This document shows, piece by piece, positions 1-59,840 of a stretch of DNA of 64,000 nucleotides. How positions within the stretch are numbered: the stretch's first letter is position 1; each line of letters opens with the position of its first letter. The notes under the pieces were generated by a model. That model was not told the origin of the DNA and did not search any database. It worked only from the letters and a program-made list of their open reading frames with translations. The stretch covers positions 50,282,001 to 50,346,000 of the forward strand of contig OX597824.1 of NCBI GenBank assembly GCA_951406725.2, given 5' to 3'. The DNA is from Octopus vulgaris. Taxonomy: Eukaryota. The position numbers and the translations under genes are program-made.

Positions 1-1338
1 TGAAGTTTATTGCCCGGGGTGTCGGATATGCAAAGATTTAGTTGCTATTTGACACCCCGAATGCGAGCCAGCCCCTGGAGGGCAATAAAATTTTGTTTCC
101 TCCCACCTATTGATGGAGGAAACTGATGCGGGCTTGGGTTTGCAGGTTCCCACCGAATTTAAAACCAGGCTGGATAGAGGACACTATCCGCCGGGGTTTG
201 GGTGGTAGCGGCGCCAAGCTCCTTAATGTTAAATTATTACCAGTGGCTGATTGGTTTGGGTCAAAAGTTACTTTGACCCTGTGGACCCAATCAGGAAAGG
301 AGTTAGTCTTTCCGGACTTTTAAACTGTGGCTGGGAGTAGGTGCCCGGTGATTCTTAAGGGTCGCCCTCCAAGTGTCGCCGGTTTCTGGAACCTGGCCAT
401 TTAAAAAAGAACTGCCCCAGAACCAAAGTTGGTTGAGACCTCTGTAGAAGAGGGAACGGAGGCAGTTGAGGAGGTGGAGGACTCCTCAAAGAAAGGCCGC
501 AAGAGGAAGAAGGTGAGCAACAATGGGTGCTCAACGAAGGATCCGAGGGAGGAGAGGCGGATCTCCCAGTCACAGAGGAAACCCACCCTTCTTAGTTAAG
601 AGAAAAAAGAGGAAGAAAAGTGAAACGGGACATTATCGGCAGTTGGTAACACAATACCGAAATGTCCCGGAACTTCGTCGGTGGGAATCGTGCAACCGAC
701 AGGTGAAGAGCAATCGTCGGTGGGAATTGTGCCACCGACGGTGGAAGTGACTACCTCATCCTTTGAAGAAGAAGAATTACTTGTCTTCTTCTACAGGGGC
801 AGAGAGGTGGAAGTGTTGGAGAAGCACCACGAGGGAGCAATTATGACCTGCACAGGGGGATCCCGAATGGCCTCCGTAGATAGCCGTGGAGGTCATAACG
901 TTGCCCGTGTTGCAAAGGCTGAAGAAACTCAATGAAGAATATCGCTTGTAGCCGGGCGGCCCCAACACGTCACCCGCTTTGTGCTTGAGTGAGGCATGGG
1001 AAATGGCGGGGTATGGGGTCACAAGCGATACTGAAGACGACTATGGGTAAGCGGTTGGAAAGCCTCGATATTGTGAACTGATAAGAGGTTTGAAAACTCA
1101 TTCTGTTTTTAACCAAGGTACGGGCCATAGTGCCTCATTTTTGTGTTTTAATGAACAATTATGAACAATTGTAAGAGGTATGATAAATAAGAGAATAATG
1201 TTTTCGGGAAACAACAATCGGCTGGCGTTGTCTATCATTTTTCTCTTTTCATCTCATATAACATTATGTCTGTGTCCAGCTCGCAGCTTCCTTCTTTCTC
1301 TATGTAAGGCCATCATAGCCAATTTAATAAAATAAAAA
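1..1338 (+). mobile_element. ORF1-only non-LTR retroelement, copy 1 (5' end lies outside the window; ORF degraded)
   Basis: Homologous to 54325-56565: RAWVCRFPP...LWTQS vs KAWICGLPP...LWTQS gives 37/55 aa identical. Degenerate knuckle KCRRFLEPGHLKKNCP at ~371-418. 3' UTR ends AATAAAATAAAAA and joins AGCTTGCTTAC of a SINE at 1339. Confidence 0.85.
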
Positions 1339-38129: not shown

Positions 38130-38132
<3 letters not shown>

Positions 38133-38285
38133 GCAAAAGTGGCTGTATGAATAGTAGCTTGCTTACCAACCTCATGGTTTCATGTTCTGTCCCACTGCTT
38201 GGCACCTTAGGCAGGTTTCTTCTGCTATAGCCTCGGACCGATCAAAGCCTTGTGAGTGGATACACGAATAAAAGAATAAAAGAAT
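38130..38285 (+). mobile_element. SINE family A, internally deleted, with an uninterrupted target site
   Basis: GTGGCTGTATGAATAGTAGCTTGCTTACCAACCTCATGG. Confidence 0.75.
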
Positions 38286-53851: not shown

Positions 53852-54230
53852 ATTAATAGTTATCGCCAAGCTAATATGGCAGTCTATAAATATAGGATGA
53901 GTGCTGGCGTTGATTAGCTCCAAGAGGCCATCGCCTCTAGCTAGTTATGTGACAAACGAACTTGTGTCTGTTATCACCTTCGAACAAGGGAGGTCAGCCG
54001 CTTCCCCTTGCTGGTCAGGCATCTGCAGACTAGTTTCAGGGTATTTCCCCTTTATGAATGCAGAGTAGCTGAACCCAGATGCCTGAACAGCAAGGGGAAG
54101 CGGCTGACCTCCCCTGTTCAAAGGTAATAATGCACACAGCTAGCTAGAGGAGATGGTCTCTTGGAGCTAATCAACGGCAGCACTCGTCCTATATTTATGG
54201 ACTGTCATATTAGCTAGGCGATAACTATTA

Positions 54231-54287: not shown

Positions 54288-54324
54288 GGCGCAGAAGTGG
54301 CTGTGTGATAAGTAGCTTGCTTAC
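54288..54324 (+). mobile_element. SINE family A 5' head up to the insertion site (includes left TSD 54310-54324)
   Basis: GGCGCAGAAGTGGCTGTGTGATAAGTAGCTTGCTTAC, continuing at 56581. Confidence 0.9.
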
Positions 54325-54348
54325 AGGTTGCTTCTGCGCATGTGCGAG

Positions 54349-54385
54349 TCAGTGTTGTGTTTGGCACTGAAGCGGTGAAGACGTG
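54349..54385 (+). promoter_or_regulatory. Putative internal Pol II promoter (Inr TCAGT plus DPE-like AGACGTG)
   Basis: TCAGT at 54349-54353 and AGACG at +29 relative to the A. A TGCGCATGTGC motif lies just upstream. Confidence 0.45.
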
Positions 54386-54942
54386 CTTTTGAAGCCGTCT
54401 TGAATTGAACATTTTTGAAGCCCCATTGTAAGGTAAGATTCTGTTTTCTGGGTCCAGTGGGAGTTTTTGTTGAAAATTGTTTTTTACAGGCAGGAAGTCC
54501 TACTGGATTCAGAATTCTGATTCTGCCGACATCGGGCAAATATATTTTTCTCGCTGAATTGTGAGAATTTTTTGGGGGCGTATTCGTCTTCGATAATTGA
54601 GTGAATATCTTTCTCACCTAATTATGAGAATTGTATTGTGCTGTGAAGAACTTTAAGAATTGTGAGAACTGTTATATAGGGAGTGTTTTGCCTCCGAAGT
54701 TTGAACAATTTTTACCAATTTTACACCAATTTTTGTGGAAGTTGTGTTCCAGTTGCGGCGTTCCGGGTTCAATTTAGGCCGGGAGTACCGAATGGCCAGA
54801 AGGTTTTTGCTGTGTTATTGACTTTCTTTTTAACTTTATTTGACTTTCTCCTTTTTTGTTCATTGTGACTTTCTTCTGATTTCTTTTTCTTCTCGCTTTT
54901 TAAGTTTTATTTTGAATATATTTAAAAAAAGAAAAAAAAAAC

Positions 54943-56220
54943 ATGGCAATGAAAAATGACAAAGTTTTGGAATGGGAGATCATACCGCCTAAAAAGTGGT
55001 TAAAAGACCGTGAAGATAGGACGGTGGTGTTGAGAACCTACTCCAAGGCACTCGACACCATCGCCCTGTTCGAAAAGACGGCAATTGAAAAGGAGTTGGC
55101 AGAGTATTTGCCAACAATTAAATTCATTTCCAGAGGTGTCAAATATGCAACGGTGTGGTTGCTATTTGACACCCCTGAAGAGGCTTGCAAATTTGCTAGT
55201 AAACCACTGGAGGGTAAGGACATTTTATTCCTGTCCACGTACCAAAAAAAGAGACTGACGAAAGCTTGGATTTGTGGGCTGCCACCCGGGATAGAACCCG
55301 AGTGGATAGAGGAGACTATCCGCCGGGGTCTGGGTAGCAGCGAAACTAAGCTCCTTAATGTAAAAGTTCTTCCTGCGGCTGCTTGGGTTGGGTCAAAAGC
55401 AATTTTGACCCTTTGGACCCAATCAGCCAATCTGGTTCTTCCAGATTTTTTGAAAATGGCCGGGTGCAGGTACCCGGTGATGCTTGAGGGTCGCCCCCCC
55501 TAAGTGTCATCGGTGCTTGGAGTCCGGCCATATAAAGAAGAACTGTCCCCGGGAACAAAATAGGATCCCGGAACAGTTAAGTGAAACCCCTGTAGAAGAG
55601 GGAATGATAACGGCCGAGGAAGCAGAGGACTCCTCAAACAGAGGCCGAAAGAGGAAGGTGAGCAACAATGGGTGCTCACCAAAGGATACTAGGGATGAGG
55701 AGGGAAAGGCGAATCTTCCGGCCACGGAGGAACGCACCCTCCCTCAGTTGAAAAGAAAAAAAAGAAAAAGAGGAAGAGAAACGGGACATTACCGGCTGTC
55801 GGTGACATAGCACCGGAATGTCCCGGAACTACGTCGGTTGGGGTTGTGCCACCAACAGGAGAATAAATACCGTTGGCGGGAACTGTGCCGCCAACGAAAG
55901 AATTGAATATCCCGCACCCGAGCAAAAACGAGGTATTGATCCTCTTCTATAGAGGCGGAGAGATTGAAAAGGTGATGGAAAAGCACCACAAGGGAGCACC
56001 TTTAGCCTTCACACAGGACCCCGAATGGCCTCCGCAGGTAGCTGTGGAGGCCGTGGCGTTCGACGTGACACTTGGGCTGAAGGAGCTCAATGAGGATTAT
56101 AGCTTGGTCCCGGGCGACGCTAACTCGGAACTCGATTACGTTCTGAGGGAGGCGTGGTGGATGGTGGAGGGCGCGGGCACAAGTTATTTCGAGGACGAGT
56201 CAAATTGTGATACGACTTGA
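54943..56220 (+). pseudogene. gag/ORF1-like nucleic-acid-binding protein (~425 codons) with CX2CX4HX4C knuckle; two frame breaks and one stop
   Basis: Starts AAACATGG; contains KCHRCLESGHIKKNC and basic GRKRK/KRKKRKR motifs. Breaks at the C7 run (55494-55500), near the A run (~55756-55763) and TAA 55864. The C-terminal LFYRG.E.E.EKHH.GA block is conserved in copy 1. Confidence 0.85.
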
Positions 56221-56565
56221 GGGGCCCCGACCTAGAGCTGGCGCATTCCTAAGGGAAGTGTAAGCCAGGTCTGGGAGGAGGGGCTTTGTGTATTGTATTT
56301 ATATATGTAATTATTGAACTATGTTGTTATTAGTAATGGACTGCTAAGTCCAAAAATTGAAAAAATTGTAAGAGGTTTAATACCTTGTTTTGTGTTTGTT
56401 TTTAAAAGAACAATGTTTTAGAGAAGCAGAAGTCGGCGGGCGCTTTTTGTCTTCTCCCATCCCCATCATCTTTCTTTCATTATCATTCACTTCATTAATG
56501 TCCTCGTCCAGCCCGCAAAGCTAACTTACTCTATGTACTGCCTTTATGGCAAATGTTATGAAATA

Positions 56566-56905
56566 AAGTAGCTTGCTTACCAACCACATGGTTTCGGGTT
56601 GAGTCCCGCTGCGTGGCACCTTGGGCAAGTGTCTTCTACTCTAGCCTCGGGTTGACCAAAGCCTTGTGAGTAGATTTGGTAGACGGAAACTGAAAGAAGC
56701 CCGTCGTATATACGTATATGTATATATACGTGTTTGTGTGTCGATTGACAACCGATGCTGGTGTGTTTACGTCTCCGTAGCTTAGCGGTTCGGCAAAAGA
56801 CACCGATAGAATAAGTACGAGGCTTACAAAGAATAAGTCCTGGGGTCGATTTGTTCGACGAAAAGCTGTGCTCCAGCACAACCGCAGTCAAATGATTGAA
56901 ACAAG
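56566..56905 (+). mobile_element. SINE family A 3' part (begins with the right TSD)
   Basis: CAACCACATGGTTTCGGGTTGAGTCCC...GTGCTCCAGCAC..GCAGTCAAATGATTGAAAC. Confidence 0.9.
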
Positions 56906-59439: not shown

Positions 59440-59836
59440 TTCTTTTATTCTTTTACTTCAGTCATTTCACTGCGGCCATACTGGAGCACCGCCTTTTAGT
59501 TAAGCAAATCGACCCCAGGACTTATTCATTGTAAGCCTAGTACTTATTCTATAAGTCTATTTTGCCGAACTGCTATGTTACGGAGAGGTAAACACACCGA
59601 AATCGGTTGTCAAGCGATGTCGAGGAGACAAACACAGACACACAATCACACTCACACACATACATATAAACATATATATATACGACGTGTTCTTTCAGTT
59701 TCCGTCCAGCAAATTTACTCACAAGGCTTTGGTCGGCCCGAGGCTATAGTAGAAGACACGTGCCCAAGATGTCACACAGTGGGACTGAACCCGGAACCAT
59801 GTGGTTGGTAAGCAAGCTAATTATCACACAGCCACT

Positions 59837-59840
<4 letters not shown>
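59440..59840 (-). mobile_element. SINE family A, full-length and uninterrupted (empty-site control)
   Basis: GGAGTGGCTGTGTGATAATTAGCTTGCTTACCAACCACATGG...GGCGGTGCTCCAGTATGGCCGCAG...(GAATAAAA) tail. Confidence 0.9.

Follow-up and report, generated by a model that had tools for sequence, protein, structure and literature searches.

ORF1-only retrotransposons of Octopus vulgaris inserted at one site of an abundant SINE and probably mobilized by an L1/Tx1-group partner

The 64,000-nucleotide stretch of Octopus vulgaris DNA analysed here (contig OX597824.1; hereafter the window) contains an element that is very probably an ORF1-only non-LTR retrotransposon, a 'half-Tx1', which moves by target-primed reverse transcription with an ORF2 borrowed from a 5.45-kb partner of the L1/Tx1 group. 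The two kinds of element have a common target, within a SINE, and a common 3' end; their insertions are independent; and the ORF1-only copies lack ORF2 and have an ORF1 under purifying selection. The common end, the common target and anomalies at the insertion junctions suggest that the partner's ORF2p mobilizes the ORF1-only elements in trans.

At the locus itself, the 15-bp repeat AAGTAGCTTGCTTAC occurs exactly at 54310–54324 and 56566–56580 of the forward strand, with 2,241 bp between the two copies, and the insertion splits a SINE, the head of which (54288–54309) lies before the first repeat and the body of which (56581–56900) lies after the second; both points agree with the preliminary description, which had been made from the window alone. 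We take 54298–54308 in the head and 56597–56607 in the body, read by eye, to be A-box-like and B-box-like motifs, respectively; ARAGORN gave no tRNA in the window, and an empty SINE copy had no Rfam tRNA match at E up to 10. The 15-mer has five matches in the window at up to two mismatches (0.12 expected by chance), and those beyond the element's own repeats lie in SINE copies at 1335, 38152 and 59808. Empty sites, with one mismatch each and the same head, are seen, as had been claimed, in the uninterrupted copies at 38130–38261 (+, 5' part; site at 38152) and 59457–59838 (−; site at 59808–59822). The match at 1335 opens the target repeat and SINE body (1335–1713, +) behind a second ORF1-only member, older, decayed and cut by the window start (1–1334, +), which had been missed; it measures about 2.1 kb overall (window 1–1334 plus L151:1702-3835), with a SINE head and 5' repeat upstream in L151. 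Just 5' of the interrupted SINE, a MITE-like long imperfect inverted repeat was recognized by eye (window 53860–54225; about 53860–54030 against 54060–54225).

The element is composed of a 5' UTR (54325–54942), ORF1 (54943–56220) and a 3' UTR (56221–56565), all on the + strand. ORF1 is broken here: frameshifts near 55495–55500 and 55760–55780 and an in-frame stop at 55864–55866 leave it in four pieces, and the copy at locus L019 has the same ORF as a single open frame of 427 aa. Of the single CCHC ORF described earlier, the zinc knuckle stands (zf-CCHC, E 0.0013, just under the Pfam cut-off; the Pfam search gave no other domain) and the single frame does not. The reported absence of RT and endonuclease was confirmed, in that tblastn with the partner's ORF2 gave no ORF2 similarity within the element (sole hit E 4.6, opposite strand). 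The last bases are ...GAAATA, with no poly(A) tail, so the A-rich 3' end previously proposed has to be dropped; the AATAAA reported there is present (56562–56567) but spans the junction, its final two A being supplied by the target repeat. A small hairpin (4-bp stem, 5-nt loop; 56539–56551), a putative RT recognition signal, lies within the 3' end that the element shares with its partner.

In a DNA search for the family, 40 of 3,335 candidates were scored, and the 30 loci taken (window included; three on C28 and four on C31 are near-duplicates of one another) all stop at the same base and continue into the target repeat. When 3' ends were searched with a 23-nt query that contained no target sequence, 48 of 52 lay at the same SINE site, a count in which 'at target' means a continuation with at most two mismatches in 12 nt and from which some random sites are missing because the last letter of the pattern excludes C; the flanking sequence at the other four begins AAGT. 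Partner 3' ends, again searched without target sequence, are at the target in 99 of 100 cases among the matches listed (of 107). The junction 22-mer has 894 exact occurrences and its reversed control none, and the 3' junctions of an ORF1-only family and the partner are exact and tail-less in 151 of 152 ends among the matches listed. No poly(A) tail was found in the listed ORF1-only or partner copies, the ends of which join the target directly. Site specificity for the SINE, as claimed earlier, is thus borne out, and a majority at random sites did not emerge.

The target SINE is short (~400 bp), dispersed and of very high copy number, with 61,686 exact 29-nt empty-site matches; set against the 894 filled sites, these give a filled fraction of 1–2%, which is only rough because the filled and empty patterns differ in length. 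The effect of insertions on the SINE is probably small, and the SINE may act as the 'safe harbour' that had been suggested. Two target variants are common, CTAAC (~53) and CTTAC (~47), as counted by hand in 100 listed empty sites. The family is present in contig runs labelled as three organisms (four runs examined), in which the empty-site joint could come from any SINE copy.

A census of the first 80 of 100 listed junctions (of 894) comprises 42 that are ORF1-only, 19 that are ORF2-bearing and 19 without an ORF; a script had classed them 42/17/21, and L039 and L040 were moved to the ORF2-bearing class by their ORF2 ends. A 5' target copy lies 1.9–2.35 kb upstream of 27 of the 42 ORF1-only junctions, the 3' ends of the census form 39 clusters at 88%, and the hairpin stem occurs in 48 of 75 scored junctions (five of the 80 are unscored), with a two-sided variant in four. 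The main ORF2-bearing family is the 5.45-kb partner, which encodes ORF1 and an endonuclease/RT; six copies are 98–99% alike, and the family is young. It is the kind of longer element, with a shared 3' end and an APE and RT, that the preliminary description had proposed to look for: it has the same target and the same last ~38 nt, to which its likeness to the window element is confined (82%). Several ORF2 frames are open (1,133–1,150 aa), with Exo_endo_phos, RVT_1 and zf-RVT domains and human L1 ORF2p as the best PDB relative (E 3e-48), and a CCHC is present in ORF1. By its APE endonuclease, RT, C-terminal zinc finger and nearest relative, L1 ORF2p, the partner belongs to the L1 group. A place in the Tx1 clade is suggested by its type I ORF1p and by sequence-specific insertion into a multicopy target (the trees hold no named Tx1 sequences); three protein searches returned no named Tx1 sequence among the homologs.

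Sister families of the partner are represented by 20 ends. Four, with RT 81–93% alike, are all at the SINE site; the 16 with RT at 72–75% are divided among (TC)n (four), other sequences (ten) and copies with no visible end (two). At 72–75% the tail-less ends read AATAAAGAA(A/T)T.., with AATAAA 6 nt before the tail-less end. One sister autonomous family (RT 74–75% to the partner; L186, L187, L188, L190, L203) sits in (TC)n microsatellites, and more sister families, tail-less after AATAAAGAA (L189, L191-L196, L198, L199, L201, L207 and G000:C9:59206858-59228873), include some in tandem at ~5.3-kb spacing. No tRNA or Rfam family was found next to sister elements. Tandem arrays at L042, L069, L025, L054, L059, L101, L182 and L209 hold different families, ORF1-only and autonomous, at one SINE site, the stacked members being separated by a single target repeat each.

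Since the target has sequence variants, the junctions tell the bases of the donor RNA from those of the recipient. Partner 5' junctions read CTAAC in 80 of 85 cases against CTAA in 60 of 83 partner 3' junctions, and among 54 partner copies paired by position all 11 with a CTTAC recipient carry CTAAC at the 5' end. The 5' repeat is therefore partly donor-derived and not a pure target duplication; the exact 15-bp pair that had been described as bounding the element stands; in the 11 informative partner copies the 5' repeat is not recipient sequence throughout. An extra base at the 5' junction is found in 7 of 11 mismatched against 7 of 43 matched partner copies (p 0.004). One ORF1-only family has CTAAC in 35 of 35 5' junctions, 6 of which also show this extra base, and the 3' ends of that group read CTAA in 81 and CTTA in 19 of 100 among the matches listed (of 155). 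Across the relatives, the last ~6 bases of the 5' repeat are often donor-derived; within the subfamily of the window element that repeat is variable or mixed, often the same as the 3' repeat, and the carry-over is less clear. Full-length and unpaired partner copies differ in recipient variant only at p 0.07, and a preference of the enzyme or the age of SINE subfamilies, instead of RNA pairing, could account for the surplus of CTAA recipients. Another AATAAA or ATTAAA lies within 250 nt upstream in 14 of 80 junction loci.

A partly donor-derived 5' repeat implies that the RNA carries target sequence. We infer that the RNA may start inside the upstream repeat and anneal to the recipient at second-strand priming, as proposed for R2; the tail-less 3' ends, together with the target-completed poly(A) signal, suggest read-through pairing as for R1Bm. 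In the pathway that we propose, which includes the transcript ends, nick positions and trans-mobilization, Pol II would transcribe from about the middle of the upstream target repeat, so that the RNA begins with a few target bases. The element's ORF1p would package its own RNA, and the partner's ORF2p would bind the 3' hairpin or AU-rich end in trans. The endonuclease would then nick the SINE at GGT|AAGTAG. As the AATAAA needs target bases for its completion, the RNA would end inside the downstream target, pair with the nicked strand and give exact tail-less 3' junctions. A second nick 15–17 nt away would produce the duplication, and full-length cDNA would anneal via its donor-derived target bases, so that the end of the 5' repeat is overwritten by donor bases. 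Finally, the duplication would recreate the target site, and hence tandem arrays could form.

The same system could also operate with specificity residing in the endonuclease alone, the RNA having no useful target sequence and the element's 5' end happening to start target-like. The specificity of Tx1L has been ascribed to its endonuclease (PMC4494074, in the part available), the AAGT at the start of the off-target sites is what a preference of the enzyme would produce, and an element end with 6–7 absorbed target bases would yield the same junction table. We nevertheless consider this account rather unlikely, as it leaves aside the exact tail-less 3' junctions (151 of 152 ends among those listed), the AATAAA that sister families too have 6 nt before the tail-less end, and the junction errors that track recipient mismatch.

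The protein retained by the ORF1-only elements was modelled from 28 rows (mean pLDDT 63), giving two RRM-like domains, a CCHC knuckle, a disordered basic linker and a small C-terminal alpha/beta domain of ~85 aa. Fold searches with the model returned tandem-RRM proteins (E 6e-5; Z 8.4, rmsd 2.4, 75 aligned), and the Atlas gave CCHC and ZCCHC3-type RNA-binding clusters at 0.91–0.93, a lead only. Type I ORF1p, with RRM(s) and a CCHC, has been tied to Tx1 elements in non-mammalian animals (PMC5203782, in the part available). On the modelled fold, the ORF1-only protein is a type I ORF1p of predicted order RRM-RRM-CCHC, and the partner's ORF1 qualifies as the same type by its own CCHC and by an RRM fold modelled on the homologous ORF1-only protein. 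The C-terminal domain is conserved across the ORF1-only families; it had no Pfam, PDB-sequence or Atlas match, no clear match in fold searches (best Z 5.0, rmsd 3.4, 75 aligned; another search gave none at E 0.001) and no alignment with the partner's C-terminus. Named protein relatives are octopod (Octopus sinensis, O. vulgaris, O. bimaculoides and Argonauta hians). The O. sinensis gene model P0003, in which ~45 residues of ORF1 are fused to an integrase-like protein, is probably an annotation chimera.

Within this protein lineage, the ORF1-only and partner proteins are 31% identical over residues 14–207, and in a tree of 35 rows 13 ORF1-only proteins and O. sinensis P0002 are set apart from the other rows by a branch of length 1.42 with 100/100 support (midpoint root). 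Between families, ten pairs compared over the N-terminal part (dS 0.47–2.2) give a dN/dS of 0.10–0.26, and for close pairs it is 0.27–0.64, in a sample for which open frames were chosen; these ratios show ORF1 to have evolved under purifying selection in the ORF1-only families. None of 94 ORF1-only-type ORFs is followed by ORF2, against eight of nine partner-type ORF1s, in a sample that is not de-duplicated and was partly chosen by likeness to the element. The ORF2-lacking copies are hence no individual deletion, and the proposal of a non-autonomous ORF1-only family needs changing in one respect, namely that there is a radiation of many families and not one. 5' UTRs have been exchanged among these families or subfamilies (L019, L047, L068, L119, L137, L145), and L137 and L145 look chimeric, with the N-terminal part of one family and the 3' part of another.

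These data also bear on the idea that ORF1-only elements arise time and again from autonomous elements by internal deletion and do not last, their ORF being dispensable. Most copies are indeed broken (a full open ORF1 frame was found in 2 of 30 family loci), and the genome's autonomous families have been seen in part. We judge this idea improbable, given the lack of any ORF2 remnant, the separate clade formed with the O. sinensis protein, the dN/dS of 0.10–0.26 at dS 0.5–2.2, and the conserved C-terminal domain that does not align with the partner's. ORF1 was moreover recovered from seven of nine sister 5' stretches, and all seven are nearer the partner type. A single deletion is rejected on the missing ORF2 remnant and the distinct ORF1 clade.

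A different possibility is that one ancient SINE insertion was amplified as a composite of SINE plus insert, so that apparent targeting is inheritance. The 5' repeat variant is fixed within families, SINE bodies that follow an element are somewhat closer to each other (0.125) than uninterrupted SINEs are (0.172), and L089 has three tandem SINE heads 5' of a full-length element, for which 5' carry-over or local duplication is possible. However, many of the 40 loci fetched are 5'-truncated at differing points, from 26 bp upward, each joined to the SINE head; three off-target copies (L071, L072, L074), situated outside any SINE, are each flanked by a separate 16–17-bp duplication; and L079, L104 and L107 have private variants common to both flanking repeats. 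No clear duplication was found at L073 or at the off-target L075 (a partner 3' fragment). Target-site duplications are variable in length and locus-specific, and because truncated and off-target copies have their own, the insertions are independent. Furthermore, divergence among 23 near-full-length copies is 4.2% and that among the SINE bodies following them 12.5% (9.6% if only the closest tenth of element pairs is taken, against 17.2% among 34 uninterrupted SINEs); the threefold greater divergence of the bodies and the weak correlation of element and SINE-body distances (Mantel rho 0.21, p 0.12) make a self-copying composite unlikely. The recipient variant also differs inside one family, and dozens of unlike families occupy one site. 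We therefore reject the composite, to which we assign very little probability, on its truncations, separate duplications and divergent SINE bodies. Very short non-coding copies (50–130 bp) at the target (L036, L045, L114, L138, L143, L147), in one of which (L045) the 5' end is joined to the 3' end, could be a miniature family.

A gag element of LTR or DIRS type, or an element integrated by a recombinase at a 15-bp core, would accommodate the CCHC knuckle and the partly donor-derived direct repeats, but is rejected as having next to no likelihood in view of the 5' truncations, the variable repeat length, an ORF homologous to the ORF1 of an APE-RT element and the absence of an LTR or recombinase.

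Returning to an ORF1-only element that borrows its partner's ORF2, we put forward tentatively a wider reading, which is possible without being the likelier outcome. A Tx1-like lineage would have switched to the SINE head, and an ORF1-only clade would have tracked it across octopus species in a long-lived three-tier system; in that clade, selection would have preserved a separate RNP protein, 5' UTRs would have been swapped and the final ~38 nt would have been copied from the partner. Target sequence would be present at both ends of both RNAs, so that transcripts that are well formed and prime well would come from correctly targeted copies alone, and targeting would be self-reinforcing and partly RNA-templated. 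If so, the bases of donor and recipient can be read from natural SINE variants at hundreds of junctions.

Precedents were compared from sources available in part. The Tx1-clade targets listed in PMC4494074 are Tx1D, U2 snRNA, microsatellites, Mariner, Harbinger and LTR elements: Tx1L of Xenopus inserts into Tx1D, crocodilian Tx1-Mar into Mariner-N4_AMi, Tx1-9_AMi into Harbinger and Tx1-8_Crp into LTR elements. Like these, the octopus partner would be an APE-RT L1-group LINE with an RRM and CCHC ORF1 that inserts at one defined position of a multicopy selfish element, and, as in Kibi of the same clade, its sister families are also found on (TC)n. Unlike them, the octopus elements target a SINE head, none being named in the available part of PMC4494074, with a specificity of ~92–99% and a coding ORF1-only radiation. 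Mammalian HAL1 (half-L1) is non-autonomous and encodes ORF1p only (PMC5753468), as do the octopus elements; these differ in a type I ORF1p (RRMs and CCHC), in site specificity, in having no poly(A) tail and in a protein just 31% like the present partner's ORF1. HAL1 proper, mammalian, L1-derived and with a type II ORF1p, is ruled out by the RRM-RRM-CCHC protein and its octopod close relatives. SINEU-3, 90% of the copies of which share the Tx1-Mar target (PMC4494074), is likewise a non-autonomous element using a Tx1 partner's target, but is non-coding and snRNA-derived, whereas the octopus elements are 2 kb long and coding. For R2, annealing of upstream target bases on the RNA has been put forward as the source of uniform 5' junctions (PMC3774820), and downstream target is needed for accurate priming by R1Bm (PMC7265360). 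Target-carrying transcripts are proposed in all these cases; R2 and R1Bm are in rDNA and co-transcribed, whereas the octopus variants among dispersed SINEs expose donor bases directly. HeT-A of Drosophila, an ORF1/gag-only non-LTR element that uses a partner's RT and forms tandem arrays, resembles the octopus elements in these three respects; it belongs to the Jockey group, sits at chromosome ends and has a host function, of which the octopus elements show no sign. Overall, the octopus system appears to resemble Tx1L and Tx1-Mar in targeting and HAL1 in dependence.

Each ingredient thus has a precedent (Tx1 into transposons, HAL1, R2), and the literature searched contained no case in which an ORF1-only element and its partner are combined with a SINE target; Repbase, Dfam, Repbase Reports, subscription papers or bioRxiv supplements may hold a description. 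In O. vulgaris, 13 recently active L1-Tx1 families are listed in PMC13282606, and the words 'target', 'nested' and 'non-autonomous' do not occur in the available part of its text and supplement, so the sequences may well sit in that library with their target unnoted. Background on the octopus OR2 CORE-SINE and on stringent 3' recognition is given in PMC4758252, PMC3747384, PMC8869645 and PMC9115989, as far as these were available.

With these elements, a SINE joins the list of targets of sequence-specific LINEs, and a coding ORF1-only parasite lineage is described outside mammals with its probable partner identified, in a three-tier arrangement of ORF1-only parasite, full-length partner element and common SINE target. 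Why non-autonomous elements such as HAL1 and HeT-A keep ORF1 becomes testable with many divergent families and a young partner, and the junctions offer a natural read-out of the second-strand step in LINE integration, which is poorly understood.
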